From an uncultured Gammaproteobacteria bacterium (GTDB taxonomy: Bacteria > Pseudomonadota > Gammaproteobacteria > PS1 > Pseudothioglobaceae), in the NCBI GenBank assembly GCA_963989885.1, contig CAXDLF010000002.1:2433-66432 (forward strand): 64,000 bases of DNA, given 5' to 3'. Under the pieces are notes generated by a model. It saw only the letters and a program-made list of their open reading frames with translations, did no database searches and was not told the origin of the DNA. The first letter of the stretch is position 1. Every line of letters begins with the position of its first letter. This document shows, piece after piece, positions 17,442-32,835 of the stretch. The translations under genes were made by a program, and so were the position numbers.

Positions 17442-18458
17442 TTATTTGTCATCGCTACTCTCAAAAGCATATTCAAAGGCATCTGAAAAGAAGTTCTTCT
17501 TACTTAGGCCTTGCTCTATGCAGCCTTTTGCTGCAGCCTTAACCATCACTGGGGGGCCGCAAGCATAGACGTCATAATCCGACAAATCTTCAAAATCTCT
17601 CATCACAGATTCATGAACATAGCCAATCTCGCCTTGCCAAGACCCACTTGCTTGTGATAATACTGGAACGAAATGAATTTTTGGAGATTTTTCGGCCCAC
17701 TCACTTGGAAGCTTTGAATACATATCAACCTCATCTCTAACACCCCAATACAGATAAACAACTCTTTCTGAGTTGATGTTAATCAGATGTTCAATTATAG
17801 ACTTTATAGGGCCAAAACCCGTACCGCCAGCAATCATAATAATTGGCCTCTCACTGTCCTCTCTAAGGAAAAAATCACCCTTGGGTCCTTCAATCCTCAG
17901 AATGGATTTTTCAGCCAAGCTATTAAAAATAAAATTTGTAAATTTTCCATCTTCAACCAAACGAACATGAAGCTCAATTAAGTTTGAATTAGCTGGTGCA
18001 TTGGCAATCGAAAAGGCTCTCGGTTCGAAATCTGAATGCTCTAAGTCCAGGTATTGACCTGCCAGATATTGCAAAGACTGAGCGCCAGGAATCTTTAAAA
18101 TAATTTGAACAACGTCATGATTCAAATGATTTATTTGCTCAACCTTACAAGGAATGCTACGAACTTCAATACTGTCAAGCGCATCTAGCTCATCAACGGC
18201 GATGTATAAATCACTTTTTGCTCTGCATTGACATAGCAAAGCCATGTTCGCTTCAACCTCATCCTTGGTGATGGCTGACGGAATTTCACCGTCATATTCA
18301 ATTTCACCATTCAAGATAACGGCTTTGCATTTGCCGCAAAAACCGTTTTGACAGCCATAGGGGAAATTCAAACCACTCGAAAGTGCACCATCCAAAACAC
18401 TTACTTCACCATTACTTTGAAAGGACTTTCCACTAACCTGATTCAATACTGTAAACAT
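17442..18458 (-). CDS. Oxygenase-reductase-type flavoprotein: N-terminal plant-type 2Fe-2S ferredoxin fused to an FNR-like FAD/NAD(P)H module (BenC/AscD architecture)
   Basis: Cys cluster CQNGFCGKCK...C, flavin motif RAFSIAN (RxYS-type), and NAD(P)H glycine loop IAGGTGFGPIKS. Length 338 aa. Confidence 0.85.
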   Translation of the reverse strand: MFTVLNQVSGKSFQSNGEVSVLDGALSSGLNFPYGCQNGFCGKCKAVILNGEIEYDGEIPSAITKDEVEANMALLCQCRAKSDLYIAVDELDALDSIEVRSIPCKVEQINHLNHDVVQIILKIPGAQSLQYLAGQYLDLEHSDFEPRAFSIANAPANSNLIELHVRLVEDGKFTNFIFNSLAEKSILRIEGPKGDFFLREDSERPIIMIAGGTGFGPIKSIIEHLININSERVVYLYWGVRDEVDMYSKLPSEWAEKSPKIHFVPVLSQASGSWQGEIGYVHESVMRDFEDLSDYDVYACGPPVMVKAAAKGCIEQGLSKKNFFSDAFEYAFESSDDK

Positions 18459-19484: not shown

Positions 19485-20018
19485 CTAACTACGACCCTTG
19501 CTGGTGAATTCTTCCATAGTGTGAAGCATTGTTCTTAAGCTGTCTATGGTAGTTTCGAATTCATCACTCGTTAGGTCGGATACAGCAACATCTTCGATTT
19601 CATGATATTTTGAAAAGACTTTTTCCATAAGCTCTTCACCAGCCTTGTTGATTTGAACAACAACTCGTCTAGCGTCATTTGGATGAGCGAGTCTTTGACA
19701 AAAACCATGTTTTTCTAGCGTTATCAAAATTCCTGTCAATGTACTTTTTGCAATGCCAGCATTTTTAGCCAGTTTTGCGGTTTCAAGATCTCCCCAAACC
19801 CACAATACCCACATAACAACAAAGCCAGAAAAGGATAGATTAAATTCCTTGAAAACATGCTTTTCTGCATAACTCCTAATAATTGATGTAAGTCTGAAAG
19901 CGTTTGAAATAATTGAGACTGATCTTCCATATAGTCCAACTGAAATTAAGTGTTTCTTAGCTTTCTCTTCAGCACTTGTAGCTTTTGGAGGTGTTTTATT
20001 TATAGATTTATCCATCAA
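19485..20018 (-). CDS. MarR-family transcriptional regulator
   Basis: Winged-HTH segment ETAKLAKNAGIAKSTLTGILITLEKHGFCQRLAHPNDARRVVVQINKAGEEL. Length 177 aa. It starts 27 nt downstream of the ADC-family gene on the same strand. Confidence 0.85.
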   Translation of the reverse strand: MMDKSINKTPPKATSAEEKAKKHLISVGLYGRSVSIISNAFRLTSIIRSYAEKHVFKEFNLSFSGFVVMWVLWVWGDLETAKLAKNAGIAKSTLTGILITLEKHGFCQRLAHPNDARRVVVQINKAGEELMEKVFSKYHEIEDVAVSDLTSDEFETTIDSLRTMLHTMEEFTSKGRS

Positions 20019-20045
20019 TGATTCTTATTACATAGTTAATTGGAG

Positions 20046-20846
20046 TTATGTTAAATTCTTTCTATCAAGAGTTTGACCGCCCTTCCAAGACACACCAACT
20101 TGACGGTAATAGCCCTGAATTAGTTCCTCAGGTTCGAGCAAATGAAATTCCTCAACCGGTGAAGAGAACAATTCAAGTTCAAAGGAACCTTTGAAGGTAA
20201 GACCAATCTCGGCATCAAAACCTGACATTGTTACTACTTCATTCAAACTGTCTTTACCATCGCATTCAATTGCCGGCATCCATCGGTTGTGAAGCATTGG
20301 TAAGGCATTGACAAACCCCGCATGATCTGATTCTGCCTCAATAGTGAACTTGGCTTGAACTAAGCGATGATCATAAGCAGCTAGAGTAGCCCCAAAAACA
20401 CCTCCAGGCGCAAGTCGAGGCCCTGCTTTTCCTACAGTTGTCGACCTTGTCAAATGAATGGAGCCAATTTTTTTCGGATATCCCTGAAATTGACCACGAG
20501 CAGCAGAAAAATCCTTGTCCACCCAAATATATATACAACGTGAGTAGGTTTTTCCTTTATATTTACAACGAACAACAAAGAACACCTCTTTATATTGGGC
20601 ACGAACAGGGTCTAATAATTCGTTAAAGTTATCGCTACAACTTTGCCAATCTGCCCAGATAACAGCGACAGCTCCGGGATCTTCTTCAGCCAACTCAATT
20701 CCATCTGGCAAGAGTTCTTCTACACGGTCAGGATTAGTTCGATATTCTAAGGTTAATAAGTCTCCCGAATAGTGCCAAGGTACATTGGGAATTAATGAAG
20801 AATTACCAGTGTGAGTTCTAGGAAAAAGAAAACCATTTAAAGACAT
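20046..20846 (-). CDS. Acetoacetate decarboxylase (ADC) family enzyme
   Basis: ADC-family pattern PWHYSGDLLTLEYRTNPDRVEELLP and adjacent lysines in GYPKK, matching the Lys115/Lys116 pair of clostridial ADC (from memory). The ATG at 20846 is preferred over the TTG at 20912. Confidence 0.75.
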   Translation of the reverse strand: MSLNGFLFPRTHTGNSSLIPNVPWHYSGDLLTLEYRTNPDRVEELLPDGIELAEEDPGAVAVIWADWQSCSDNFNELLDPVRAQYKEVFFVVRCKYKGKTYSRCIYIWVDKDFSAARGQFQGYPKKIGSIHLTRSTTVGKAGPRLAPGGVFGATLAAYDHRLVQAKFTIEAESDHAGFVNALPMLHNRWMPAIECDGKDSLNEVVTMSGFDAEIGLTFKGSFELELFSSPVEEFHLLEPEELIQGYYRQVGVSWKGGQTLDRKNLT

Positions 20847-20886
20847 ATATTCAACTATTTCAATTAATGTTATAAATATATGATAC

Positions 20887-20902
20887 CATTCGGGAGCGAA
20901 TG
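20887..20902. promoter_or_regulatory. Candidate operator CATTCG-GGAG-CGAATG (TTCG-N4-CGAA class) in the divergent ADC-marR / FAH-P450 control region
   Basis: Perfect 6+6 inverted repeat with a 4-nt spacer. It shares arm sequence and spacing with the 14-mers at 27320, 32822 and 35269. It lies 41 nt upstream of the ADC ATG. Confidence 0.5.
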
Positions 20903-21007
20903 AAATTATCAAAATTTAAATATACACCTTTGAAATTAAGTCATAATTCATAAATCATCGTATATAATATATAATCATTCGTACCCAAACGAAATATAGG
21001 ATTAAGT

Positions 21008-21898
21008 ATGCCAACCAAAGAATATCGGAAAATACTATTAAATGGAGAATCGGTTCAAGTTACTGTAGAGGGAGATGAACTGGTTACTAAAGACGGAAAA
21101 ATTGTTGACATCGAAGAAGCGCATCATCTGCCACCAACTCAACCCTCGAAGATTATTTGTGTTCATTTAAACTACGAAAGTCGCGTAAAGGAATATATAA
21201 CCAAGCTACCACCGGCCCCAACATATTTTCACAAACCCATCACTGCACTCAATAGTCACAAAGGTGATGTTGTTAGACCTGAACGCTGCAAATGGCTAAA
21301 CTATGAAGGCGAGATTGCCATAGTTATTGGTCGAAATTGTCGTAATATAAGCCCTGCTGAGGCGGGATCATATATTGAAGGTTATACAATAGCTAATGAT
21401 TACGGTTTGCATGATTTTAGAGATACAGATGCAGGATCAATGCTTAGAGTTAAGGGTTCAGACACTCTGTGTCCAGTCGGACCAGGTTTAGTTACTGGCT
21501 GGAATTTCCATAACAAAGGAATTCGCACAATTGTTAATGGGAAGGTTATGCAAGATGCGAATACTAGCGAGATGGAGTGGGATATGCACTACCTTGTCGC
21601 CGATATAGCCCGTAATATTACTTTAACACCCGGAGACCTGCTACTTTCAGGAACACCTGCAAATAGTCGCCCTGTCCAACCAGGTGATGTTGTCGAAGTT
21701 GAGGTAGAAGGTTTAGGTGTTTTATCCAACACAATCGTTAATGGTGTGGCTATTCGTGATGATGTCGGTGCCCAACCTTCTAGCTCTGAAGAAGTTGTTT
21801 CTACTGCTATGGGTGGTGACTGGGAATTTCGTGGACAAAGGGCAGCAGGCGGACAGGGTGCGAAACATTATAAATCCGCCGTAGAAACCAAAAAGTAG
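21008..21898 (+). CDS. Fumarylacetoacetate hydrolase (FAH) family enzyme (HpaG/MhpD-like hydratase, isomerase or decarboxylase) with a C-terminal low-complexity tail
   Basis: KIICVHLNYESR, NYEGEIAIVIGRN, GYTIANDYGLHDF and LLLSGTPANSRPVQPGDVVEVEVEGLGVLSN. About 55 extra C-terminal residues are rich in G/A/S/Q. Confidence 0.85.
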   Translation: MPTKEYRKILLNGESVQVTVEGDELVTKDGKIVDIEEAHHLPPTQPSKIICVHLNYESRVKEYITKLPPAPTYFHKPITALNSHKGDVVRPERCKWLNYEGEIAIVIGRNCRNISPAEAGSYIEGYTIANDYGLHDFRDTDAGSMLRVKGSDTLCPVGPGLVTGWNFHNKGIRTIVNGKVMQDANTSEMEWDMHYLVADIARNITLTPGDLLLSGTPANSRPVQPGDVVEVEVEGLGVLSNTIVNGVAIRDDVGAQPSSSEEVVSTAMGGDWEFRGQRAAGGQGAKHYKSAVETKK

Positions 21899-21924
21899 TT
21901 GAATATTAACCTTCAGAAAAAACA

Positions 21925-23202
21925 ATGATCAAAACAGTCAGCCCAAATAACAATGACGATATAAATGCAGATATTACTAGTCACGATACTTTTGAAAAAG
22001 GCTTCCCACATATGGCATTTAAAAGGATGCGTGATGAAGATCCCTGTGCTTGGATAGTTGAAACCGATGGCGGAAGTGGTTTCTGGGCTGTTACACGATA
22101 CAAGGATATTAAAGAGGTTAATGGTTTACCGAAAATTTTTAGCTCAGCACAGGGTATTCGTCTAGAAGAACAATCGAAAGAAGAATTTGAAGCTCGCAAG
22201 ACTTTCCAAGAAACTGACCCACCAGTCCATACTCGACAACGTATGATGTTCCATCGTGGATTTACTCGTAAACTTATTTCAACTTATGAACCAATGATTC
22301 GTGATATTTGTAACGATATTATTAATAAAGCAGTTGATTTGGGTGAGGTCGATGCTACTAAAGAGATTGCTAGAAAATTACCAATGAGAATGTTAGGTCG
22401 CGTTGTTGGAACTCCTGATGAGGATGCCGAGTGGCTAGTTTCAAGAGGTGACTCAATGATTGCTAACAGTGATCCAGATTTTACTGACTATGTTATCGAC
22501 AAGGTTGATACAGATGAATATCGATTTTTACCTTTTCGTTCCCCTGCTGGCAAGGAAATTTATGATTACGGAGAAAAACAAAGGAGACTTCGTGAAGATC
22601 ATGATATGGGTGATGTGATGTCAATGTTATTGCAACCAAACAAGCAGGGAGACAGACTTTCAGACCTCGAATTTAAAAACTTCTTTGCGCTCATGGTGGC
22701 TGCAGGAAATGATACAACGCGGTATTCGATGGCTTTTTCAATGCATGCTATAGCTAATAATCCTTATATTTTTGACTGTCTAAAATCCGCACCTGATGAT
22801 GCGCCGGTTTGGGCTAGCGCTACCGAAGAGTTTATCAGATGGGCTTCACCAACTATGCACTTTAGACGCACCGCAACAGAGGATTATAAACTTCATGGAA
22901 AGCAGATCAGAAAGGGAGAAAAAGTCGCCATTTGGTTTACTTCTGGAAATTACGATGAGCGAAAGTTTCCGGACCCATTCAATCTTATTTTAGAGAGAGA
23001 AAATAATCAACATATTGCTTTTGGTCAGGGCGGTCCTCATGCATGCTTGGGTATGTGGCTTGCACGATTGGAAGTTCGTGTGGCTATGCAGGAACTCCTT
23101 AAAAGGGTTTCGAAAATTGAGCAAATTGGTCCCGAAAAATACTTGCGCTCCAATTTTATTCGGGGAATAAAAAACTTGCCTGTTAAGTTAACATCGGCAT
23201 AA
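21925..23202 (+). CDS. Cytochrome P450 (class I, ferredoxin-dependent)
   Basis: I-helix AAGNDTTR, ExxR (EEFIRW) and heme-thiolate loop FGQGGPHACLG. Length 425 aa. Confidence 0.95.
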   Translation: MIKTVSPNNNDDINADITSHDTFEKGFPHMAFKRMRDEDPCAWIVETDGGSGFWAVTRYKDIKEVNGLPKIFSSAQGIRLEEQSKEEFEARKTFQETDPPVHTRQRMMFHRGFTRKLISTYEPMIRDICNDIINKAVDLGEVDATKEIARKLPMRMLGRVVGTPDEDAEWLVSRGDSMIANSDPDFTDYVIDKVDTDEYRFLPFRSPAGKEIYDYGEKQRRLREDHDMGDVMSMLLQPNKQGDRLSDLEFKNFFALMVAAGNDTTRYSMAFSMHAIANNPYIFDCLKSAPDDAPVWASATEEFIRWASPTMHFRRTATEDYKLHGKQIRKGEKVAIWFTSGNYDERKFPDPFNLILERENNQHIAFGQGGPHACLGMWLARLEVRVAMQELLKRVSKIEQIGPEKYLRSNFIRGIKNLPVKLTSA

Positions 23203-23233
23203 TATGGGATTAAATAATTAATTAAGGAGAATC

Positions 23234-24520
23234 ATGAAAGATTACAGAAGAGTTCGAGTGCTATTCTCAGATCATTTGGGTTTGGCGAGAGGAAAATATC
23301 AACCCATAAATACTGCAACTGGTGGTGAGGCAAGGTTTTGTATTAGCCTTTACGGCCTTACCTATGACAAGCAGTTATTACCAGTACCTGGTAGCGGTTT
23401 ACTTGATGGCTTGCCTGATGTAGTTGCTAAATTCAAAGAAAAAGACGTTCGCCCCTCCTGGGAGGCTGATACGGGTGTCGTTATACCGGATATTGAATTT
23501 AAGGGAAAACCTTTGGCACATTGTGGACGCAATGTATTGAAAAAGACAATAGCTCAGCTTGAAGGAATGGGTTTAACACCATATGTCGGAATCGAATTAG
23601 AAGCCTATGTTTTTCAAAAAGATAGTTCCGGCAACTGGGTTCCATACAACACTCCAGGAGCATATGTCTATGGTACTGGTTCAACGGTTGATCCTGCGGG
23701 TCTGATTGACGAAGTTTGGGAACAAGCTGAAGCTTGCGGTATTGAGCTAGAATCATTCAATTCAGAGTTTGATTCACCGCAATTTGAATTGACTCTAAAG
23801 TATGACATGGCTCTGGAAGCGGTTGATCAGATATTTCTATTCAAAGTCATGGCAAAAGAGATTTTTGAACAGAATGGCTACTTATTAAGTTTTATGCCAA
23901 AACCTTTATCGAAAACTGGTGGCAGTGGAATGCATGTTAATTTTAGTTTCAATAATAAAAAAGGCAATAATGCCATTTATGATAAGTCTTCCAAAGATGG
24001 CTTGTCTGATATTGCAAAAAAGGCTATTTCTGGTCTTGTAAAACACCATGAAGGTATGTCAGCTTTACTTGCGCCAACAGTTAATTCTTATCGAAGATTG
24101 TTGCCTGCAAGTCTTTCAGGATATTGGGCAAATTGGGGTTACGACCATCGAGGAGTGACAACAAGAATACCTGATGAACGTGGCGCAGGCACAAGAATTG
24201 AATTTAGAATGGCTGATTGTGCTGCTAATCCATATACTGCAGTTGCAACAGTTCTTCAAGCTGCTAAGTTGGGTATAGAGAATAATTATGAATTGCCTGA
24301 CGCAGAAACTCTAGACTGCCTTGAATCTCAAAGCACAGATAGACATGTTCCAGACAACTTGGCTCTTGCCTTGGAGGCTTTAAATGCTGATAAAGTTCTA
24401 TGTCAAGCGGTAGGCCAAGAGCTGGTAGATAATCATACTGCTATCAAGGAGCAAGAGTGGCAAGATTATGCTGCTCATACAACAGACTGGGAATTTGATC
24501 AATACCTGAAATATATCTAG
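23234..24520 (+). CDS. Glutamine-synthetase-like gamma-glutamyl-amine ligase (GmaS/IpuC/PuuA-type)
   Basis: GS catalytic-domain motifs GSGMHVNFS and NSYRRL, plus RIEFRMADCAANPY. Length 428 aa. Strong AAGGAG RBS. Confidence 0.85.
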   Translation: MKDYRRVRVLFSDHLGLARGKYQPINTATGGEARFCISLYGLTYDKQLLPVPGSGLLDGLPDVVAKFKEKDVRPSWEADTGVVIPDIEFKGKPLAHCGRNVLKKTIAQLEGMGLTPYVGIELEAYVFQKDSSGNWVPYNTPGAYVYGTGSTVDPAGLIDEVWEQAEACGIELESFNSEFDSPQFELTLKYDMALEAVDQIFLFKVMAKEIFEQNGYLLSFMPKPLSKTGGSGMHVNFSFNNKKGNNAIYDKSSKDGLSDIAKKAISGLVKHHEGMSALLAPTVNSYRRLLPASLSGYWANWGYDHRGVTTRIPDERGAGTRIEFRMADCAANPYTAVATVLQAAKLGIENNYELPDAETLDCLESQSTDRHVPDNLALALEALNADKVLCQAVGQELVDNHTAIKEQEWQDYAAHTTDWEFDQYLKYI

Positions 24521-24529
24521 GATTGGGTG

Positions 24530-25993
24530 ATGTCAAATAGAATTTCCATAAAAGGTGTCAAGGTTTCTACAGATCACTATATTAATGGAAAGCGAGTTTC
24601 GTCCGATAAAAAATTTAGCGTCATCAATCCAAATAATCCTAGCGAGATTCTCGCTGAAGTGTCAAGAGGTGATGCAAAAATAGCTAAACTCGCAGTTTCT
24701 GCTGCTCGAGAAGGATTTAATGTTTGGTCAGAAATGAGTGTTGAGGAGCGTGCATTGATTATGCACAGGCTAGCCGATCTTATCGAGTCTAATATTGACG
24801 ATATTTCCCTTATTGAGTGCTTAGATATGGGTATGCGCCATGAAAGTCTAAGAAACCGAGTCATTCCACGGGGTGCTAGAAATTTTCGTTCGTATGCAGA
24901 TATTGCTAAAGAATATAAACCAAGGAAATGGCATTCAAATACTACCAAGAATGAAATCCAACGTATGCCTAGCGGGATTAGCGTCATTATTACTCCTTGG
25001 AACGCTCCATTTATGTTGTCTACATGGAAGTGTGCGCCCGCCCTCGCTGCAGGCAATAGTGTGATTTTGAAGCCAGCTGAATGGTCACCATTATCAGCAT
25101 CATTGTTGGCTGATTTGATTGATGAAGCATGTTTTCCAGCTGGAGTCTTTAATATTGTCCAAGGCATTGGTGAAGAAGTTGGAGCGTTGCTAGTATCAAA
25201 CCCAAATGTGAATCGTGTTTCATTTACTGGCTCCCCTGAGGCGGCACGCCATATCGGTAAATCGGCCGCTGAAAATATCACCCCATTCACTGGTGAGTTG
25301 GGTGGAAAAAGTCCATTAATCATCTTTCCAGATGCGGATCTAGAATCGGCTGTTGCAAAGGCAGTAGGACAGTTTGATGACTCCGGTCAGATTTGTCTTG
25401 CAGGAACTAGATTATTGGTACATTCATCCATAAAAAATGAATTTTTAAATCGCTTCTTAGAACTGACTGCCGAACAAAAATTAGGTGCAAGTTTTGATGA
25501 CGAAACTGAAATTACCCCGATGATCCATCCAGAACATCTTCAAAGTGTTGCTGGCTTTGTTGACCGAGCTAGAATCAATGGAGACAAGATTCTGTGCGGT
25601 GGAAAGGTTTTTAAAAATGGCAAATTGTGGTATGAGCCAACTTTAATTGAACCTGTTTCTAATCAATCTGAAGTGGTTCAAAAAGAAATTTTTGGTCCAG
25701 TTTTGACACTTCAAACATTCGACACTGAATCAGAAGCGATTGAATTGGCAAACAGTACAGAATACGGCCTTGCCGGAATGCTCTATACCAAGAATCGTGA
25801 CATCGCTGAACGAGTTGGACGAGCAATTCGTGCAGGCACGGTTTGGGTTAACTGTTTTCTTATTCGTGACCTGACAGCACCATTTGGTGGTTTTGGAATT
25901 AGTGGTATTGGTCGAGAAGGTGGTGATTATGGAATTGATTTTCATAGTGACTTAAAAACCTTTCAAATACTTGATGATTCTTTATCTGAATAG
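24530..25993 (+). CDS. NAD(P)-dependent aldehyde dehydrogenase (resembles the hydroxymuconic-semialdehyde DH / ALDH8 group)
   Basis: FTGELGGKSP with the catalytic Glu, catalytic Cys in GQICLAGTR, and the EIFGPV motif. IPRGARNFRSYA resembles the HMSADH-type motif (from memory). The GTG at 24527 is an alternative start. Confidence 0.9.
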   Translation: MSNRISIKGVKVSTDHYINGKRVSSDKKFSVINPNNPSEILAEVSRGDAKIAKLAVSAAREGFNVWSEMSVEERALIMHRLADLIESNIDDISLIECLDMGMRHESLRNRVIPRGARNFRSYADIAKEYKPRKWHSNTTKNEIQRMPSGISVIITPWNAPFMLSTWKCAPALAAGNSVILKPAEWSPLSASLLADLIDEACFPAGVFNIVQGIGEEVGALLVSNPNVNRVSFTGSPEAARHIGKSAAENITPFTGELGGKSPLIIFPDADLESAVAKAVGQFDDSGQICLAGTRLLVHSSIKNEFLNRFLELTAEQKLGASFDDETEITPMIHPEHLQSVAGFVDRARINGDKILCGGKVFKNGKLWYEPTLIEPVSNQSEVVQKEIFGPVLTLQTFDTESEAIELANSTEYGLAGMLYTKNRDIAERVGRAIRAGTVWVNCFLIRDLTAPFGGFGISGIGREGGDYGIDFHSDLKTFQILDDSLSE

Positions 25994-26020
25994 TATTTTT
26001 ATTTTATTAGGATGCAGTAA

Positions 26021-26350
26021 ATGACAACCGTCAAATATATATTAGAAGATGACTCTGAAGTCCTGATTGAAGCAGATGTAGGGCAAAATTTAATGCAATT
26101 GGCCCTTGATAATAATCTTGATGGTATTGAGGGCGCCTGTGGTGGTTCCTGTATGTGCGGCACTTGCCATGTTCTAATTGAATCGGTTAAAGGAAAACAG
26201 CTTAAAGAAAGAGATGAAATGGAAACAATAATAATAGAAATGGAAATCGATGAGCTTGCTCCTCCTAATAGTCGCTTGGGATGTCAGATTACTATAGATG
26301 AAGGGATGGAGTCAATCACGGCACGTATTGCCAATCTTAGTAATTTCTAA
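26021..26350 (+). CDS. Adrenodoxin/putidaredoxin-type 2Fe-2S ferredoxin
   Basis: Cys pattern C-x5-C-x2-C (GACGGSCMCGTCHV) plus a distal SRLGCQI. It is 109 aa, acidic, and the last gene of the P450 operon. Confidence 0.9.
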   Translation: MTTVKYILEDDSEVLIEADVGQNLMQLALDNNLDGIEGACGGSCMCGTCHVLIESVKGKQLKERDEMETIIIEMEIDELAPPNSRLGCQITIDEGMESITARIANLSNF

Positions 26351-26365
26351 TATCTGGTGTAATAT

Positions 26366-27238
26366 TTAAGTCCAGCCCTCAACAGGTTGGTCAAACCAAA
26401 GATGGACTTGACCGGTTCCTGTGGCGTTTTCGTAGTCACCAAACTGACGGCCTTTGGCTCGACAATTCACTCCACCAATCGCCTCTGCCATAATTAAGTA
26501 GTGTCCAAATTTACCTTCTGGAGCGTATTTTTTATATTCATCCATTCCCTCAAATACAGAACGATGGTCACCTTTTTTTAACCAAGCAATTCTCTTCTCA
26601 TCGGCCTTCCTTGCTTCTGGTGTAATGACGTGAATAGGGTCAGATGCTTCATGTTTCTCGAGCTCATCAAGTGGCCAAAACCTATGACTTAATCCTCCAC
26701 TTGCTAATAGTACTACACGCTTATCAAATTGCTCTATTGCTTCTTTCAAGCCCCTACCAACCTCCATAAAATGCTCTTTCTTAGCTGTACCACAAATACT
26801 CATTGAAAGCCACTGTTCATTACCTTGGAGATACTCAAGTAAATTAACAGTGGGATAATGTATTGGTAGGTGTTCATTGTCGTTGGCAGAGCAACGCACA
26901 CCATTTTCATTGACACGTTCTACAATATTATTTGCTAATTCAGGATTACCAGTTATATCGAATGGAATGCTGTTCATAGTCCGAGGTAACTCCTCCGATG
27001 TATAAAAACCTCGACGCCTTTGATGACTCGTGACAATGAATTCAACGATCGTAAACCAATGAGTATCAATAACAATAACAACATCGGGATTAAGTGGTTC
27101 TAAGATTTCACGTCGCATGTCTTGAAGACCGGTCACTAATGAGATTTCTTTGCCATCATTTAGAGCATATCGTTGCTCTTTAGACATCATAATTGTTGGT
27201 ACATGAGATACCAATCCAACCCCTACTATTTCACCCAA
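26366..27238 (-). CDS. Class III extradiol ring-cleavage dioxygenase (LigB family catalytic subunit)
   Basis: VGLVSHVPTIM N-terminus, DTHWF and SGGLSHRF (His-containing LigB motifs). The TTG start at 27238 is preceded by GGAG at 7 nt. The ORF-track ATG at 27271 adds a hydrophobic, non-conserved extension. Confidence 0.8.
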   Translation of the reverse strand: MGEIVGVGLVSHVPTIMMSKEQRYALNDGKEISLVTGLQDMRREILEPLNPDVVIVIDTHWFTIVEFIVTSHQRRRGFYTSEELPRTMNSIPFDITGNPELANNIVERVNENGVRCSANDNEHLPIHYPTVNLLEYLQGNEQWLSMSICGTAKKEHFMEVGRGLKEAIEQFDKRVVLLASGGLSHRFWPLDELEKHEASDPIHVITPEARKADEKRIAWLKKGDHRSVFEGMDEYKKYAPEGKFGHYLIMAEAIGGVNCRAKGRQFGDYENATGTGQVHLWFDQPVEGWT

Positions 27239-27319
27239 ATTTATTCTCCAAAAAAAAATCCAAAAAAACATTCTAACTACATCAACTTACTTCAACAAGG
27301 AATCAAAGAGCAAAAATTT

Positions 27320-27333
27320 GTTCGTATACGAAC
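27320..27333. promoter_or_regulatory. Candidate operator GTTCGTATACGAAC (perfect 14-bp palindrome) upstream of the LigB-type dioxygenase gene
   Basis: Perfect palindrome, identical to the 14-mer at 35269-35282. It lies 10 nt downstream of a candidate -10 element and 82 nt upstream of the TTG start. Confidence 0.6.
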
Positions 27334-27343
27334 GTTTTTAATC

Positions 27344-27372
27344 AATATACTATAACCTCAACTTTGAGTCAA
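27344..27372 (-). promoter_or_regulatory. Candidate sigma70 promoter of the dioxygenase gene (TTGACT-17 nt-TATATT on the minus strand)
   Basis: The reverse complement of 27367-27372 is TTGACT and that of 27344-27349 is TATATT. The spacer is exactly 17 nt. Confidence 0.45.
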
Positions 27373-27376
27373 GAAA

Positions 27377-28096
27377 CTAAGAGCAAAAAAACTCCATAAT
27401 CCACTGAGCCCAAATACTGGAATCAGATTTACCATTTTCAATACGTAGCCTAGCTTTTTGAAGTTCTTTTTCGGTTAACACTTTTTTAGTAACTTCAAGA
27501 AAGTTATACATTGCGCGTTTTGGTTGTTCTGGATGTCCCTGAAGACAAGCGATATTTTTACCAAGAGTATAGGCAAAGTCTGGATAGTCTTCAGTGCGAG
27601 CAAAACTTATTGCACTATCAGGTAATTTAGTCACCCTCTCTTTATTAAAATGATACAGGTCGGTAGTGTCTAATTTATTTTTCATCCAAGGAAATTTTTT
27701 ATTGATTTCTAGGGGGAAGCTCCCTATCATCCAGCCTTTTTCATTATTACCAACAACACCGCCAAAATGCTCTGCAATGAGTTGATGACCAAAACACACT
27801 CCAACGATCGGTTTATTTTTATTGTCTGCATGGCCCACAAATTCCGAAAGCATTTTTATCCAATCATAATTATCGTGAACACTAACTGGACTTCCTGTCA
27901 ATAAGTAGCCATCGTAACTCTCAATAATTTCAGGAAACTCGTATTCCGACACATAAAAAATATCAAATTTTGCATTGTCGTTTTCAGGCGCTAGCAAGTC
28001 AACAAATTTCTGACCGTCAGTAACACCATTATCATCACGCCAATGAAATTTCGGCACAGAATCAAGTATTGCAATTTTGATTGGCTGTTCGTTCAT
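27377..28096 (-). CDS. Class I glutamine amidotransferase-like protein (stand-alone; probable gamma-glutamyl-amide hydrolase)
   Basis: Nucleophile elbow GVCFGHQ and His-Glu in LQGHPE. Length 239 aa. Its ATG directly abuts the sulfatase TAG (TAGATG). Confidence 0.8.
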   Translation of the reverse strand: MNEQPIKIAILDSVPKFHWRDDNGVTDGQKFVDLLAPENDNAKFDIFYVSEYEFPEIIESYDGYLLTGSPVSVHDNYDWIKMLSEFVGHADNKNKPIVGVCFGHQLIAEHFGGVVGNNEKGWMIGSFPLEINKKFPWMKNKLDTTDLYHFNKERVTKLPDSAISFARTEDYPDFAYTLGKNIACLQGHPEQPKRAMYNFLEVTKKVLTEKELQKARLRIENGKSDSSIWAQWIMEFFCS

Positions 28097-29665
28097 CTAC
28101 CATCTACCAATAATAATTCCTGCCTTCTCGTCTGCTTCAGGCGAGCGTTTATAAAGCTCATCTAAATGAACCACGGTTCTTTGCTTTCTTTGTCTTAGCC
28201 AAGCAAATAATTGCTTTTCAAAGTCAGCTAAACACTTAGATTGGTCTGGATTTTCAGCGAGATCATTGAACTCATTAGGGTCATTCAACAAGTCAAACAA
28301 TTGTGCTCGAAAGCCTTCCCAATAAATATACTTCCAACGAGTATTTTTTATCATGTAGCCTCGACACTTGTAAGGGTGATGATCAAGGATTTGTCTAGCA
28401 CCACGATCGCTATAATCTATTTCGGCAAAAACCGTATCACGCCAAGCTGTGTTATCACCAAAAAGCAATGGGACAAGCGATCGACCCTCCATTCTATTAG
28501 ATGCATATGAACCTCCCATCGTTTCGACAAGGGTCGGCACTATATCAACTGATTCAGTCATTCTATTTTCAGAAGTTCCACGAAGATTTTCCGGCATTTC
28601 AGGCTCAACAATAATTAGTGGAATGCGAATTGAGGGCTCATGAAATAAATCCTTCTCACCAAGCCAATGATCACCAAGATAGTCGCCATGGTCGCTGGTA
28701 AAAATAATTAAAGTATTTCTACTTAAATTATTTTCATCTAAAAACGTTATAAGTCTACCAATATGATGGTCAATTTCACTTATCAGACCCATATAGGTTG
28801 GAATTACGTGTCTACGTTTTTTCTCGTCTGTGTAGTTTCGAGAATATTCAAGCTGCTGAAAAGCAGAAAAGACGGGGTGAGGATTTTTCTGCTCGATCTT
28901 ATCCTTAACAACCCCTACAACATCACTGTCTTTATACATTTTGTGGTACGGCGAGGGAGCAAGCAAAGGCCAATGAGGATTAAAATAACTCAAATGTAAA
29001 CACCATGGGGTATCCTTATTTCGAGTAGAAATATACTCCATTGCACGATTGGTTAGAAAAGCTGTTTCTGAATGCTGTGCTTCGATATCTGAAGGCAAAT
29101 GAGCATTCCTCATCTCCCAGCCGCTACATTTCAAACCAGACTTTTTAGTAGCAGTATTAGCTGCGTTTTCCCAAGGATTATGCATCTCATAGCCTTGAGA
29201 CAATAAATAATCGTTATAGCCAACTCCATCATAGACAATAGGCTCTGGATATAAACCTCCATAATGCTCAAAAGGGGTAAAACCATTGTCATGACGATTT
29301 AGAGCTATTTCAGAATCTAGTGGTACGTTCAGACGCGATAAGCCTTCTGTATTAGGACGTCCTTCGCTTTTACCTACAACATGCGCTTCAATACCCAACT
29401 CACGCATGTAATCACCCAAGGTAACTTCGTCGACTTTTATTGGGTCGTCATTAGCCATCACTCCGTGACTAGTCATATAACGACCAGTATAAAAACTTGC
29501 CCTGCTAGGACCGCACAGTGAGGCATTACAATAGCTGTTCTCAAACAACATACCTCGACTGGCAAGTTTATCAATATTCGGTGTGTTTATGCTGGGATGA
29601 CCAGTACAACCAAGATAATCATGCCTTAGCTGGTCACACATAATAAATAAGATATTTTTATTCAC
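28097..29665 (-). CDS. Cys-type sulfatase without a signal peptide (predicted cytoplasmic)
   Basis: NILFIMCDQL N-terminus directly at the start, formylglycine motif CGPSRASFYTGR, and SDHGD metal site. GTG start. Length 522 aa. Confidence 0.9.
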   Translation of the reverse strand: MNKNILFIMCDQLRHDYLGCTGHPSINTPNIDKLASRGMLFENSYCNASLCGPSRASFYTGRYMTSHGVMANDDPIKVDEVTLGDYMRELGIEAHVVGKSEGRPNTEGLSRLNVPLDSEIALNRHDNGFTPFEHYGGLYPEPIVYDGVGYNDYLLSQGYEMHNPWENAANTATKKSGLKCSGWEMRNAHLPSDIEAQHSETAFLTNRAMEYISTRNKDTPWCLHLSYFNPHWPLLAPSPYHKMYKDSDVVGVVKDKIEQKNPHPVFSAFQQLEYSRNYTDEKKRRHVIPTYMGLISEIDHHIGRLITFLDENNLSRNTLIIFTSDHGDYLGDHWLGEKDLFHEPSIRIPLIIVEPEMPENLRGTSENRMTESVDIVPTLVETMGGSYASNRMEGRSLVPLLFGDNTAWRDTVFAEIDYSDRGARQILDHHPYKCRGYMIKNTRWKYIYWEGFRAQLFDLLNDPNEFNDLAENPDQSKCLADFEKQLFAWLRQRKQRTVVHLDELYKRSPEADEKAGIIIGRW

Positions 29666-29679
29666 TCAATTAATGTAGA

Positions 29680-31161
29680 TTAGTTAGCTTGACTTCTGTA
29701 TTGGCGCCATATTGACCAAAAATGAATTAATAGTGCTATCACAATTATCGCAAAAATTATGCCTGAAATGGGTCTATTTATATAGTCAAATAAAGTATCG
29801 ATACGTGCCTGACTAGCACGAAACTTTAGTTCCATGATGTTACCTAATACCATTCCAAGAATGATTGGCACAATAGGTAGATTGAGTCGCTTTAAAGCAT
29901 AACCAAGTACACCAAAAACAGCACACATTATGCAATCAATCATAGAATTTCTTAGCGTATAAACACCAACAAATGAGAGTCCCAAAATTGAGGCACCCAA
30001 AAAACGCTGTGGTATCTGAATTATTTTGAGTAGAGATTTTGTAGCAATAAGCAAGAAAATTATCACAATAATATTAATTAAAATTAAACTTGCGTATAGT
30101 CCATACACAAAATCAATATGTTTTACAAACAAATCTGGGCCAGGAATGATGCTATGAACATAAAAAACTGATAGCATCATTGCTGTTAAAGCTTCGCCAG
30201 GAATACCAAGTGCTAAGAGTGGAATCATGGCTGCAGCTGGAACGGCATTATTGGCAGCTTCAGCGGCGATAATACCTTCTGGAGCCCCTTTACCAAATCT
30301 TTCAGGTTTGTCAGAAATGCCTCTGGCTATATTGTAAGAAAAAAATTGTGCTAGGAACTCACCTACACCAGGAATAATTCCCATTATCACTCCCATACCT
30401 GAAGAAATGAGAGCAATAGTTTTATATTTGATTAGATCGAATAAGCCTTCACTTTTTTTACCTTTTAAACTAGGCATTGAGACACGTTTATCTTTACCAA
30501 TAAGCAGTATGAAAGCCTGAGAAACCGCAAATAAACCGAGCAATACGGTAATTAAATCAAAGCCTGATAAGAGCCATGATTGGTCAAAAGTAAATCGCTT
30601 TGTATATCTGACATTTTCCATTCCGATGGTGCTTATAAACATTCCAAAAAAAACTAGCATTCCAGCTATTAGGGTTTGTTTTCTATGTGAGATAACAACC
30701 AATACCAATCCCAACAAGGCTGCCATCAGAATATCTCTAGAGCCAAACAGTGGAGCCACCTTGGCTATTAAAGATGTCATAAAAACAAGACTCATAATTG
30801 AGAAAATACCTCCAGTAAACGAAGACCAATAAGCCAGAGTGATGGCTCGCCTTGCTTTATTATCTTTCGTCATGCTGTAGCCATCATAAGTAGTCAATGC
30901 ATTGACGGGTGTACCAGGAGTATTAATCAAAATTGCTGGTATGGCGCCACCATACATTGCAGAACCATAAATACCCAATAGCACAGTAATACCAATAATT
31001 GGCTCCATACTGTAGGTTGCAGGAAGCAAAATAGCAATCGCCACGGCCGGCCCAACTCCTGGAATCGCGCCAATAATCACCCCACCTATTGAACCAACTA
31101 ATATAGCTACCCAGACATCCCATCTAAGGAATATGTCAAAACTTGAAAGAATTAAGTCCAT
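29680..31161 (-). CDS. tctA: Tripartite tricarboxylate transporter large permease TctA
   Basis: 493 aa and about 12 TM helices. It has TctA-type repeated GxIPGVG motifs (GAIPGVGPAVAIA; GIIPGVGEFLAQF). Confidence 0.9.
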   Translation of the reverse strand: MDLILSSFDIFLRWDVWVAILVGSIGGVIIGAIPGVGPAVAIAILLPATYSMEPIIGITVLLGIYGSAMYGGAIPAILINTPGTPVNALTTYDGYSMTKDNKARRAITLAYWSSFTGGIFSIMSLVFMTSLIAKVAPLFGSRDILMAALLGLVLVVISHRKQTLIAGMLVFFGMFISTIGMENVRYTKRFTFDQSWLLSGFDLITVLLGLFAVSQAFILLIGKDKRVSMPSLKGKKSEGLFDLIKYKTIALISSGMGVIMGIIPGVGEFLAQFFSYNIARGISDKPERFGKGAPEGIIAAEAANNAVPAAAMIPLLALGIPGEALTAMMLSVFYVHSIIPGPDLFVKHIDFVYGLYASLILINIIVIIFLLIATKSLLKIIQIPQRFLGASILGLSFVGVYTLRNSMIDCIMCAVFGVLGYALKRLNLPIVPIILGMVLGNIMELKFRASQARIDTLFDYINRPISGIIFAIIVIALLIHFWSIWRQYRSQAN

Positions 31162-31168
31162 GAATTAA

Positions 31169-31696
31169 TCAAAAATAAACCATAAAAAATGTTGCCCAAC
31201 CATCTGGAAGATAATCATAAATTGCGCCACTGGGTATCTTTACTTGTAATAAAGATTTAAATACAACCACAATTCCAAATCCCGTCACTAAACTAACCCA
31301 GAACATGGAAAGAGTTCGATAACCTGATCTAATGGTCAGTAGCGAGAAAAACAATAAGGTCGAAAGTAAATAGCCTACTAAGGGAACAAACCAAACATAC
31401 AATACAAAATAAAAAACAAACTCTAAAGTTCTTGACCAGGATGATAATTCATTTAATTCACCCTGAACCTGGCCTAGTTGCAATTTATAACTTCGCCAGA
31501 TCTGCATACTATAAAGCAAACCGAACAGAGCCATTCCGACTAGACAAAATGTGGGCCAAAGCCTTGGTTGTTTAACTAATGGGACGCCATCAAACCACTT
31601 TGTTTCAAAGGGAATTGATACTAGTAAAACCAATACAATAAGAAGCATCAGAATTACAAAGACTAAATCACCTGCTTGGTATTCTTCTTTACCCAT
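31169..31696 (-). CDS. tctB: Tripartite tricarboxylate transporter small subunit TctB
   Basis: 175 aa with four hydrophobic helices. It sits between tctC and tctA, so the assignment rests mostly on context. Confidence 0.65.
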   Translation of the reverse strand: MGKEEYQAGDLVFVILMLLIVLVLLVSIPFETKWFDGVPLVKQPRLWPTFCLVGMALFGLLYSMQIWRSYKLQLGQVQGELNELSSWSRTLEFVFYFVLYVWFVPLVGYLLSTLLFFSLLTIRSGYRTLSMFWVSLVTGFGIVVVFKSLLQVKIPSGAIYDYLPDGWATFFMVYF

Positions 31697-31734
31697 AAAG
31701 ATCTATAAAATTATGATTACTTTACATTTTATAT

Positions 31735-31764
31735 AAAAAAAAGGAAGGTTAATTAACCTTCCTT
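31735..31764 (-). terminator. Intra-operon rho-independent terminator/attenuator between tctC and tctB
   Basis: Perfect palindrome AAGGAAGGTTAATTAACCTTCCTT (31741-31764), followed on the minus strand by a T tract (A run 31735-31740 on plus). Confidence 0.55.
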
Positions 31765-31785
31765 TTCTTTGTAGTTTTGTCTCTA

Positions 31786-32724
31786 CTAAAGACTACCAAT
31801 AGTAGCCATAGTCGCCCTGTCTTTATTGATTTGTGCAGTTGAAGCATCAGCATCCATCCAGTAGATTAATGCACCGCTGTTGGCCGCGACTTCTTGCGCC
31901 CTATCACTTAGCATTGATTTCTTGGCAACAGCAATAATCTTATCTTTAACATCCTGTGGTGTGCCTTCTCCGACAAATAAGCCGTTCCATAAAAATATAT
32001 CTAACTCAGGTATCAATTCACCAATTGCTGGTGTGTTCGGTACCTTAGATATACGCTCATTTGTTATAGAAACCAAAACTTTAACATCATTTAAGCATGG
32101 CAGGATTAGCTGAATCGTTGTATTAATAACGTCTGCATCACCTGAAGCTAAAGTATTACAGTCCAGCATATCAAAGGCAGCGTCCGAACCCCATTCGAAG
32201 CCATATATCTTAGCTGCAGCTTTGGTCACCTGGGTTGGTGCCAGTGGGTCACCAAAGTGACCTAGCGTTACCTTGTTACTTTTAGCATGATAAGCTAATT
32301 GTTGAAATGAACTATATGGAGCATCGCCTGCTACAGCTATCACAAATGGATAGGTTAGGAAAATCCCTAGAGGCTCGAAAGTGTCTTCAGTCAAACCTTC
32401 TATTCCAAGATTTGGTCCTACAACCGGTACACCGATTACAAATGAACCTACCATGGAACCATCAGGATCTGCTGCCGCTACTTCCATCGCACCAGGGAAT
32501 GGACCACCGCCACCGCCTGGTTTATTAACAACCGCTGCTGCAACACCATATTCAGCCTGAAAGTCTTCTGCAATCATCCTGGTTAAAACATCTTCAAGAT
32601 CACCAGGAGGCCATGGCACAACAAAAGTCACAGGTTTATCAGGATAATCAGCCTGTGCAATTGGCATACCTACCATAAAAGCTGAAAGTGCAAAAAGCAC
32701 TCCAATCAAAGTTTTTTTCATCAT
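31786..32724 (-). CDS. tctC: Tripartite tricarboxylate transporter periplasmic substrate-binding protein (TctC/Bug family)
   Basis: Signal peptide ending AQA, followed by DYPDKPVTFVVPWPPG and VVNKPGGGG (Bug-family N-terminal pattern). Length 312 aa. Confidence 0.85.
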   Translation of the reverse strand: MMKKTLIGVLFALSAFMVGMPIAQADYPDKPVTFVVPWPPGDLEDVLTRMIAEDFQAEYGVAAAVVNKPGGGGGPFPGAMEVAAADPDGSMVGSFVIGVPVVGPNLGIEGLTEDTFEPLGIFLTYPFVIAVAGDAPYSSFQQLAYHAKSNKVTLGHFGDPLAPTQVTKAAAKIYGFEWGSDAAFDMLDCNTLASGDADVINTTIQLILPCLNDVKVLVSITNERISKVPNTPAIGELIPELDIFLWNGLFVGEGTPQDVKDKIIAVAKKSMLSDRAQEVAANSGALIYWMDADASTAQINKDRATMATIGSL

Positions 32725-32821: not shown

Positions 32822-32835
32822 GTTCGTATACAAAC
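32822..32835. promoter_or_regulatory. Candidate operator GTTCGTATACAAAC (one mismatch to the 14-bp palindrome) upstream of tctC
   Basis: 13/14 identical to the sites at 27320 and 35269. It lies 6 nt downstream of a candidate -10 element and 98 nt upstream of the tctC ATG. Confidence 0.55.

Follow-up and report, generated by a model that had tools for sequence, protein, structure and literature searches.

What does a bacterium degrade with an operon in which an FAH-family gene is followed by genes for a cytochrome P450, a glutamine-synthetase (GS)-like ligase, an aldehyde dehydrogenase (ALDH) and a ferredoxin? The operon of interest lies in a 64,000-nucleotide stretch of DNA (the window; 39% G+C) from an uncultured gammaproteobacterium of the Pseudothioglobaceae, contig CAXDLF010000002.1. 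An earlier, sequence-only reading of the window had likened the operon to the isopropylamine (ipu) pathway, with a small aliphatic amine as its substrate. We find that the five genes are part of a larger unit: a three-operon, ~13-kb catabolic island under probable MarR control (19485-32724). The substrate that we read from its protein families and conserved gene neighbourhood is also a different one; most likely, the island degrades a phenolic or catecholic arylethylamine, akin to dopamine or tyramine, which enters the cell as a sulfate ester.

The core of the island is a run of five tightly packed open reading frames, separated by 26, 31, 6 and 27 nt (Table 1). They lie where the sequence-only reading placed them, all on the + strand, and Pfam assigns each to its family. 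Two further details of that reading are borne out: the heme-ligand loop FGQGGPHACLG in the P450, and the position of a class I glutamine-amidotransferase-like (GATase) gene outside the operon. The same reading overlooked the genes on either side, which belong to the same island. Genes for an acetoacetate decarboxylase (ADC)-superfamily enzyme and a MarR-family regulator are divergent from FAH, and the gene for a LigB-type extradiol dioxygenase is convergent on that for ferredoxin. Upstream of LigB, on the same strand, lie the genes for the GATase, a sulfatase and a tripartite tricarboxylate-type (TTT) transporter, TctCBA. The whole stretch has a collinear counterpart in a Thioglobus-like contig (L006), with 77% identity at the DNA level.

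Is the ligase, as the sequence-only reading allowed that it might be, simply a glutamine synthetase? The protein scores 226 bits with the GlnA model TIGR00653 (cut-off 429) and 104 bits with PRK09469 (cut-off 845); it also falls below the cut-offs of type III GS and of gamma-glutamylputrescine synthetase. In a true GS, the flap glutamate (E327 in the Salmonella enzyme, within the sequence GYEAP) is catalytic, and closes the ammonium site. Alignment with Bacillus subtilis GS (4lnf) reveals that the flap PGYEAP has become PASLSG in the window's protein, and the change from GYEAP to ASLSG is found in 81/81 P450-linked family members collected. The metal, ATP and glutamate ligands (ExE, the Glu of NSE/QFE, the His of GSGMH, NSYxR and RIP..R.E.R) align with those of the B. 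subtilis enzyme, and point to an active, ATP-dependent gamma-glutamyl ligase. Since the flap Glu is gone while the ATP, metal and glutamate sites are kept, the expected product is the gamma-glutamyl amide of an amine. In the PDB, GSI-alpha and GmaS enzymes (1e-52 to 1e-47, GmaS being at 1e-47) are closer matches than NpaA1 (1e-26) and PA5508 (1e-23).

The ligase does not travel alone. The P450, which carries its characteristic motifs (FGQGGPHACLG, the I-helix AAGNDTT, and EEFIR) at positions that are invariant in the P450 alignment, has thousands of relatives, and at least about 600 GTDB species representatives were matched. Its best genome match is Gamma proteobacterium SCGC AAA007-O20 (96% identity), followed by Candidatus Thioglobus and related single-cell or metagenome-assembled genomes (86-89%), which places the window in the SUP05/ARCTIC96BD-19 group. 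Relatives with 53-96% identity nearly always have a GS-like gene next to them: in 80 of the 82 loci with enough downstream sequence, it follows the P450 gene directly. The clear exception is locus L031, in which P450 and ring-cleavage genes are present and the GS-like gene is missing. The P450 is an obligate genomic partner of the ligase, and neighbour-joining trees of the two proteins look congruent. The sequence-only reading had also raised the possibility that the P450 might group with steroid hydroxylases. In the PDB it does come closest to CYP125, CYP124 and CYP268, but at clan level only, and its own relatives in the 53-96% range are the GS-linked ones. An ancestral CYP125 reconstruction (8vxi) gives 6e-91, a score that probably reflects no closer kinship than that of the clan. 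Membership of the CYP125 family itself was considered and rejected: natural CYP125 proteins give an E-value of ~1e-58, and the genomic context consists of GS-like ligase and ring-cleavage genes, not steroid genes.

FAH and ALDH are not enzymes of an ipu-type amine pathway. Their best matches lie elsewhere, and the two travel with LigB and the ADC-superfamily enzyme. Judged by their nearest families, the LigB dioxygenase, the HpaE-like ALDH, the HpcE-like FAH and an MppR-like enzyme (the ADC-superfamily protein) are a variant of the homoprotocatechuate (HPC)-type meta-cleavage set. LigB best fits the model HpaD_Fe (TIGR02298; 142 bits, cut-off 316) and, among structures, HPC 2,3-dioxygenase 8iq8 (2e-23). 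ALDH best fits HpaE (TIGR02299; 478 bits, cut-off 638), which it matches by ~50 bits over the next family, and may serve as the ring-fission semialdehyde dehydrogenase. FAH best fits HpaG-C (TIGR02303; 197 bits, cut-off 276), has the C-terminal domain of HpcE (1gtt) as its best PDB relative (1.3e-58), and is the candidate isomerase/decarboxylase of the ring-fission diacid. HpaD, HpaE and HpaG are hence each the top-scoring family, with each score below the equivalog cut-off. No protein of the set is more conserved than FAH (71-88% identity across phyla). Its unusual C-terminal tail, pointed out by the sequence-only reading, exists (residues ~245-296), and is no low-complexity filler: the 50-residue extension follows the pattern IRDDVGAQPxxSEEVxSTAMGGDWEFRGxRA..G.GA.HYKS, which is strongly conserved among 31 orthologues that come from several phyla.

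The fourth member of the set may account for a gap in the pathway. Neither in the island nor recurrently in 29 related loci (described below) did we find the isomerase HpaF, the hydratase HpaH or the aldolase HpaI. The ADC-superfamily protein matches MppR (4jm3, 5e-52) and Sbi00515 (4zbo, 2e-37) in the PDB. It keeps the Schiff-base lysine in a GxPKK motif (QGYPKK in the window, QGMPKQ with K156 in MppR, QGFPKK in Sbi00515); it is not MppR itself, because it scores 193 bits against an MppR equivalog cut-off of 380. MppR acts through its lysine on gamma-hydroxy-alpha-keto acids and shows aldolase activity (PMC10367076, PMC7820114), and in Saccharolobus grown on phenol, proteins of the ADC superfamily have been suggested to act as the aldolase of the meta pathway (PMC7820114). 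The MppR-like enzyme, then, probably carries out the hydration and retro-aldol steps in place of HpaH and HpaI.

Set beside the classical Hpa/Hpc pathway, the island shares the LigB dioxygenase, the HpaE-like dehydrogenase, the HpcE-like FAH, and a MarR regulator for which HpaR is the best NCBIfam match (47.7 bits against a cut-off of 121, too weak a score for the assignment to be of use in separating mechanisms). It differs in several respects: (i) all four proteins fall under their cut-offs, (ii) FAH is a single-domain protein with a new, conserved tail, (iii) HpaF, HpaH, HpaI and HpaBC are missing, with the MppR-like enzyme replacing hydratase and aldolase, and (iv) the entry to the pathway is by ligase and P450, not by an amine oxidase. 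In Pseudomonas putida U, the homoprotocatechuate pathway serves the catabolism of tyramine and dopamine.

Are the amine-activating and ring-cleaving halves really one system? The pair of P450 and GS-like genes occurs in three contexts. In type 1, it is accompanied by the ring-cleavage genes; in type 2 (Limnohabitans, Rhodobacteraceae, Rhizobiales), by a GATase, a different ALDH and a class III aminotransferase; in type 3 (L001, L014-16), the pair stands alone with ferredoxin, ferredoxin reductase (FdR) and MarR genes. The Thioglobus pair has its closest kin in type 3 loci (65-67% identity). We collected 29 non-redundant type 1 loci, from Thioglobaceae, Arenicellales, Kordiimonas, Novosphingobium, Anaerolineae, Acidimicrobiales and others. 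The P450 and ADC genes are present in all 29, FAH in 27, ALDH and LigB in 26 each, GS in 24 (a count held down by contig ends), sulfatase in 15, MarR in 14, TctA in 13, ferredoxin in 11 and FdR in 8; no further gene family recurs in these loci. The ALDH of the set (ALDH1) forms an orthogroup with 48-78% identity across type 1 loci. Fuller clusters—those of Kordiimonas marina, a plasmid of Novosphingobium sp. EMRT-2, and freshwater locus L168—add a GATase, an FdR and, directly after FAH, a second ALDH. These second ALDHs are distinct from ALDH1 (33-39% identity) and non-orthologous between lineages.

Type 1 loci are spread over at least five separate branches of the P450 tree, in many phyla and with shuffled gene order. 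Since the ring-cleavage context is not monophyletic in the neighbour-joining trees of either P450 or GS, position in the tree cannot predict the substrate. Starting from FAH, a scan of metagenome contigs recovered the same enzyme set from lake and soil, with GS-like proteins and P450s that share just ~33% and ~40% identity, respectively, with the window's; what ties ligase, P450 and ring cleavage together functionally thus outlasts the exchange of the partners for distant homologues. These observations bear on the suggestion that an amine-oxidation module has simply come to lie beside an unrelated meta-cleavage module for aromatic acids (sulfated hydroxyphenylacetates, for example). The P450-GS pair is, after all, also found without ring-cleavage genes; L098 has ADC-FAH-ALDH2-ferredoxin with no P450 or GS within 10 kb; and TTT transporters usually carry carboxylates. 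Yet a chance juxtaposition would have had to recur in at least five branches of the P450 tree, across many phyla and gene orders, and again with P450/GS lineages that are only 33-42% identical. In the window, moreover, P450 and GS sit between FAH and ALDH in one operon, with gaps of 6-31 nt. We consider it very improbable.

Table 1. Genes and predicted regulatory sites of the window, with positions in the 64,000-nucleotide stretch.
Feature	Position	Strand	Remarks
FAH-family gene	21008-21898	+	Pfam FAA_hydrolase 2.7e-56
Cytochrome P450 gene	21925-23202	+	Pfam p450 1.5e-21
GS-like ligase gene	23234-24520	+	Pfam Gln-synt_C 2.5e-86
ALDH gene	24527-25993	+	Pfam Aldedh 2.3e-146
[2Fe-2S] ferredoxin gene	26021-26350	+	Pfam Fer2 1.5e-09
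LigB-type extradiol dioxygenase, HpaD-like	26366-27271	-	Pfam LigB 1.5e-32
Class I glutamine-amidotransferase-like (GATase)	27377-28096	-	Pfam GATase
Cys-type sulfatase, arylsulfatase/PehA type	28097-29665	-	Pfam Sulfatase 5.8e-50
TctA, TctB, TctC tripartite tricarboxylate-type transporter	29680-32724	-	Pfam TctA 1.2e-127, TctB, TctC
ADC-superfamily, MppR-like enzyme	20046-20912	-	Pfam ADC 5e-52
MarR-family regulator, likely island repressor	19485-20018	-	Pfam MarR
Promoter-like TTCATA-17-TATAAT, then operator ATTCGT-N6-ACGAAT (20977-20994)	20947-20994	+	Upstream of FAH
Promoter TTGACT-17-TATATT and palindrome GTTCGTATACGAAC (27320-27333)	27320-27372	-	Upstream of LigB
Palindrome copy GTTCGTATACAAAC, one mismatch	32822-32835		Upstream of tctC
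Exact palindrome copy	35269-35282		Upstream of FadH/OYE-type gene
FadH/OYE-type Fe-S flavoenzyme, 717 aa	32964-35117	-	Pfam Oxidored_FMN and Pyr_redox_2; next to tctC
Fer2-FAD-NAD (Fer2-FNR) fusion reductase, BenC/Fre type	17442-18458	-	Next to bolA and miaA, 2.5 kb from island
Second gamma-glutamyl/polyamine (Puu-like) cluster	38054-50877		Classical type
GATase of polyamine cluster	39253-39975		30% identical to island GATase
DAO-family oxidase of polyamine cluster	41053-42321		
GS-like ligase of polyamine cluster	43893-45251		28% identical to island GS-like ligase
Succinate-semialdehyde dehydrogenase (SSADH)	49411-50877		In polyamine cluster

Could the island act on an aliphatic amine nonetheless? 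The sequence-only reading had proposed an ipu-like route for isopropylamine-like substrates, or else for gamma-glutamylmethylamide (which would give glutamine and formaldehyde). On such a route, the ALDH would oxidize an amino- or alkyl-aldehyde and FAH would be a bystander. The ipu clusters of Pseudomonas sp. KIE171 and Paenarthrobacter aurescens TC1 (the latter with a documented P450 system, PMC6776027; our locus L091) do resemble the operon: each combines a GS-like ligase, a class I P450 with ferredoxin, a GATase-type hydrolase and ALDHs nearby. The trio of ligase, P450 and ferredoxin follows the same gamma-glutamyl-amide oxidation logic, and the match of the ligase to the GmaS structure is in keeping with an aliphatic amine. 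The analogy holds for the logic only. The window's P450 and ligase are 29% and 31% identical to their ipu counterparts (the latter to IpuC), which by the usual 40% rule places the P450 in a different CYP family from that of TC1, and the window's GATase, which aligns with that of TC1 over just 24 residues (E 0.016), falls in a separate subfamily. Furthermore, no dioxygenase, FAH, ADC-family enzyme, sulfatase or TTT transporter belongs to ipu; its substrate is a small aliphatic amine, and what its ALDH oxidizes is an aminoaldehyde and not a product of ring fission. The HpaE-like ALDH orthogroup always travels with LigB, FAH and ADC, and the conservation of FAH is not that of a bystander. Gene context lends no support to the demethylation of gamma-glutamylmethylamide, and none of the window genes examined appears to handle formaldehyde. 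An aliphatic substrate is therefore most unlikely. What survives of the proposal is N-dealkylation as a chemistry, which we retain as the preferred mechanism for an aromatic amine.

Nor is ipu the only precedent, as the sequence-only reading had it. P450 genes of the pipA/morA type (CYP151, in mycobacteria and Gulosibacter) likewise lie by a GS-family gene, a ferredoxin and a reductase, and serve amine catabolism (PMC9477822); type 2 relatives, with the gene order GATase-P450-GS-ferredoxin-ALDH-aminotransferase, have the content expected for such a cyclic-amine route. The pipA/morA clusters differ from the island in their P450 families (the listed mycobacterial and Rhodococcus plasmid P450s are 32-34% identical to the window's), in having no aromatic ring-cleavage genes, and in their substrates, which are saturated N-heterocycles. 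The piperidine (pip) cluster of Pseudomonas sp. KU43P is reportedly similar; our literature search did not find it.

If the amine is aromatic, its amino group might be bound directly to the ring. In the AtdA1-A5, TdnQTA1A2B and NpaA1-A5 systems, an aromatic amine is gamma-glutamylated before ring oxidation, with a GATase-like partner (PMC11335346). By analogy to AtdA1, TdnQ and NpaA1, the island's ligase would glutamylate an aniline-type substrate, the P450 would take the place of the Rieske enzyme and produce an ortho-hydroxylated anilide, the GATase would free 2-aminophenol, and LigB would cleave this as AmnAB does, leading into an aminomuconate-type route. The pairing of GS-like ligase and GATase resembles that of the aniline and 1-naphthylamine systems (PMC11335346), and LigB is weakly similar to 2-aminophenol 1,6-dioxygenase subunits (1e-9 to 1e-7). 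More generally, aminophenol pathways are a known setting for FAH-family decarboxylases and hydratases, which also counts for this route. We think it unlikely all the same: LigB is far closer to HPC dioxygenase than to AmnA or AmnB, occurs as a single subunit, and is accompanied by no gene for a deaminase; the GATase that the route requires is missing from most loci; the ligase is closer to GSI-alpha and GmaS enzymes than to NpaA1 or PA5508; and APC permeases and sulfatases suit biogenic amines better. The known systems also use a two-subunit Rieske dioxygenase, whereas the island uses a P450 and has no Rieske domain among its proteins. Their downstream steps are of the catechol or naphthalene type, not the HPC type.

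Uptake genes add to the picture of the substrate. The sulfatase scores 316 bits as PehA and 269 bits as arylsulfatase in NCBIfam; it has a CGPSR motif and no signal peptide, as expected of a cytoplasmic, Cys-type enzyme. Orthologues (46-53% identity) lie inside 15 of the 29 type 1 loci. TctC does have a signal peptide, and across type 1 loci the TTT transporter co-occurs with the sulfatase; in the sulfatase-less loci L002, L045 and L058, an APC-family permease is found. This pattern fits an amine that can enter the cell in one of two forms, the free cation or an anionic or zwitterionic sulfate ester; Thioglobus and Arenicellales are likely to import the ester.

How might these parts work together? 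In the route that we favour, TctCBA would import the sulfated amine and the cytoplasmic sulfatase would strip the sulfate, after which the GS-like ligase would make gamma-glutamyl-dopamine. The P450 and ferredoxin would hydroxylate the carbon adjacent to the amide nitrogen of this compound, and the resulting carbinolamide would collapse into glutamine and 3,4-dihydroxyphenylacetaldehyde; the amine nitrogen would be captured directly as glutamine. An aldehyde dehydrogenase would oxidize the aldehyde to homoprotocatechuate, LigB would open the ring, and ALDH, FAH and the ADC-family enzyme would carry the product to pyruvate and succinic semialdehyde, for which an SSADH is encoded in the window. 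The GATase would be an accessory, acting in salvage or in the regeneration of glutamate. We give the complete proposal—P450 hydroxylation next to the amide nitrogen, release of glutamine, and cleavage of homoprotocatechuate—a probability of roughly 0.4.

Hydroxylation next to the nitrogen is favoured because a single chemistry explains types 1, 2 and 3, the branches of which are interleaved in the tree. The census of the GATase also favours nitrogen removal, which explains why 24 of the 29 type 1 loci have no hydrolase nearby. The same route makes use of the second ALDH in the fuller clusters, and the position of the pair beside paaABCD in Ruegeria sp. TM1040 (below) also counts in its favour. 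Several observations weigh against it. Firstly, the scores of all three ring-cleavage enzymes lie well under the equivalog cut-offs (142/316, 478/638, 197/276) and, together with the unique FAH tail and the missing HpaF, HpaH and HpaI, suggest a substrate other than homoprotocatechuate. Secondly, the route needs two aldehyde oxidations, and the window and most minimal clusters have one ALDH. Thirdly, the grouping of genes into blocks [LigB / P450-GS-ALDH1] and [ADC / FAH-ALDH2] better fits a different order of steps (below). Fourthly, GS, GATase and ring-cleavage genes are found together in three freshwater loci that have no P450 within 10 kb, and L031 has the P450 and ring-cleavage genes without GS. 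Finally, the solved P450s that come closest belong to the terminal C-H hydroxylases and not to the N-dealkylases.

The different order of steps is one in which the ring is cleaved while the amine is still protected. Here the ligase would make gamma-glutamyl-tyramine, and the P450 would hydroxylate this at ring C3 to give gamma-glutamyl-dopamine, the ring of which would be opened and processed by LigB, ALDH, FAH and the ADC-family enzyme with the glutamyl group still on; this group would stop the amine from cyclising onto the ring-fission aldehyde. By carbon counting along the homoprotocatechuate scheme, the products would be pyruvate, CO2 and gamma-glutamyl-4-aminobutanal, a PuuC substrate. 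A second ALDH and the GATase would turn the last of these into GABA and glutamate, such that the route would merge with the putrescine (Puu) pathway. Ring cleavage in this form needs one ALDH only, and the gene blocks stand in pathway order, early and late, in Kordiimonas, Novosphingobium, L098, L108 and L115. An N-acylated substrate would suit the divergence of all ring-cleavage enzymes from canonical Hpa proteins, the FAH tail and the lack of HpaF, HpaH and HpaI. GATase and ALDH2 occur in the fullest clusters (with an aminotransferase in L168), and the second ALDHs are as like aminoaldehyde dehydrogenases as anything else. In L125, L138 and L154, GS and GATase are kept with no P450 near, as expected if a catechol amine needs no hydroxylation. 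The window's Puu-like cluster has a paralogous GATase, an aminotransferase and an SSADH, and the ipu P450 hydroxylates a carbon remote from the nitrogen (PMC6776027). On the other side, a gamma-glutamyl hydrolase is needed and none lies nearby in 24 of the 29 ring-cleavage loci; the P450s share ~55% identity, and intermingle in the tree, with those of loci that have no ring-cleavage genes at all, so that one lineage would have to perform two chemistries; and minimal loci consisting of P450, GS, ferredoxin and FdR would yield a dead-end product. We hold protected-amine cleavage to be somewhat less probable than the route with nitrogen removal. The second ALDHs, being non-orthologous between lineages, are uninformative on mechanism, and the clusters that lack a P450 or contain a luciferase-like monooxygenase send mixed signals.

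The GATase itself is a candidate gamma-glutamyl-amide hydrolase or glutaminase, with an accessory role. It shares 30-31% identity with its counterpart in the window's polyamine cluster, as well as with the GATases encoded upstream of P450 in type 2 loci. The polyamine cluster (Table 1) is a second, classical gamma-glutamyl (Puu-like) system; in addition to its ligase, GATase and SSADH, it encodes an L-2-hydroxyglutarate-oxidase-like DAO, an agmatinase, a class III aminotransferase and a polyamine-type ABC transporter. Like the island, the Puu and Pau pathways use a gamma-glutamyl handle, and later steps in them fall to an aldehyde dehydrogenase and a gamma-glutamyl hydrolase. The Puu pathway differs in that a flavin oxidase acts on the free distal amine, with neither P450 nor ring cleavage.

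Where would the P450 obtain its electrons? It has the features of a class I enzyme (the Cys-loop, the acid-alcohol pair of the I-helix, and ExxR) and a cognate ferredoxin, with the motif CGGSCMCGTC...C, as its predicted redox partner; the cognate reductase is missing. That the operon has no reductase gene had been observed by the sequence-only reading, and we confirm it: with the cognate FdR proteins of two relatives as tblastn queries, the 64 kb yields no homologue (the best hit, E 7e-4, covers 39 aa of a Rossmann motif). The reductase-less state is not a feature of the design: comparison with relatives indicates a lineage-specific deletion, and FdR is in any case present in just 8 of the 29 related clusters. 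Thioglobus relatives with 87-89% P450 identity retain the gene. In L006, L011, L012 and the metagenome contigs L093-L095, a 403-aa FdR (Pyr_redox_2/Reductase_C) lies exactly between the ferredoxin and LigB genes. In the window, 15 nt (26351-26365) separate the stop of ferredoxin from that of LigB; the distance is likewise 15 nt in SCGC AAA007-O20, and L009 also lacks FdR at this position. As read from these junctions, the absence of FdR is a clean, recent loss in one sublineage. With FdR lost in this lineage, electrons must come from a reductase encoded elsewhere. A Fer2-FNR fusion reductase encoded near the island may be an electron donor for the P450 system. As a specific substitute for FdR it was rejected, since it is syntenic in L006, which owns an FdR.

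The window's lineage is a reduced version of the island in a second respect, having one MarR gene as well as no FdR. L006 carries two tandem MarR genes (1608-2773), both of which align to the single gene of the window. Which genes might this regulator control? The promoter-like site upstream of FAH has 10/12 consensus matches and is followed by an inverted repeat, and the motif CATTCGTACCCAAA(C/T)GAA upstream of FAH is conserved in five Thioglobaceae lineages, the DNA of which is otherwise ~77% identical. Across five lineages at that same level of background identity, the promoter and palindrome upstream of LigB are invariant or one base off. The palindrome has three matches in the 64 kb, against 0.32 expected; the copy upstream of tctC, which has one mismatch in the window, is exact in L009 at the same place. 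The palindrome and the ATTCGT-N6-ACGAAT site are probable MarR operators. Together, the sites suggest a single regulon, with the FadH/OYE-type flavoenzyme as a possible member. The architecture of this flavoenzyme is one that enoate reductases, trimethylamine dehydrogenases and histamine dehydrogenases share. One reading frame in this region may need a new start: the longest LigB reading frame opens with an implausible MFFWIFFWRINLGE, orthologues are 290-298 aa long, and the true start is probably ~10 codons downstream of 27271, near LGEIVGVG.

Some neighbourhoods of related genes deserve mention in their own right. A luciferase-like flavin monooxygenase gene adjoins tailed FAH in L125 and L138 (10980-11921), L119, L161, L096 and L124; in L125 and L138, the locus also contains an aldo/keto reductase. 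These are freshwater and soil versions, in which the P450 may be present or not. On the megaplasmid of Ruegeria sp. TM1040 (L090, 6505-14698), a type 2 GATase-P450-GS group lies directly beside paaABCD and a PaaE-like gene. These paa genes encode phenylacetyl-CoA epoxidase, and a TTT transporter, an ALDH, a Tm-1-like ATP-binding protein and a PaaI thioesterase are encoded downstream. The neighbourhood hints that the pair is linked to phenylethylamine or phenylacetate metabolism. Finally, upstream of the type 1 cluster on the plasmid of Novosphingobium sp. EMRT-2 (L089, 1327-9885) are genes for a tannase/feruloyl esterase, a carboxylesterase, a TonB-dependent receptor, a CocE/NonD hydrolase and a DUF3237 protein, which points to an ester or amide conjugate as the source of the substrate there.

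Our literature search found no P450/GS-like pair joined to extradiol cleavage, no bacterial catabolism of gamma-glutamyl-tyramine or gamma-glutamyl-dopamine, and, for Thioglobus, nothing relevant on aromatic catabolism. The island is real and widespread and, so far as this search shows, uncharacterised; it probably joins amine catabolism that depends on gamma-glutamylation to a variant of the meta-cleavage pathway. For the P450/GS pair, the tailed FAH and the MppR-like enzyme, present names go no further than the family; with a function assigned to them, thousands of genes could be better annotated.

Among the carriers of the island are some very abundant ocean bacteria, namely Arenicellales and the SUP05/ARCTIC96BD-19 group (Thioglobus). 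Roseobacters and lake Limnohabitans have the P450/GS-like pair as well; in the loci that we fetched, it stands apart from ring-cleavage genes. Either of the two mechanisms for an arylethylamine would be new. If nitrogen is removed as we propose, the P450 would strip the amine as ready-made glutamine, allowing nitrogen to be assimilated without free ammonia and at no extra ATP over the ordinary route. If the amine is instead protected throughout, the island would be a new route for the degradation of tyramine or dopamine, with ring-cleavage enzymes that work on an N-acylated substrate. And if biogenic arylethylamines, sulfated or not, are indeed what is degraded, the island would be a sink for dissolved organic nitrogen and sulfur compounds from algae and animals, and would add aromatic-amine heterotrophy to the traits of bacteria that are best known as sulfur oxidisers.

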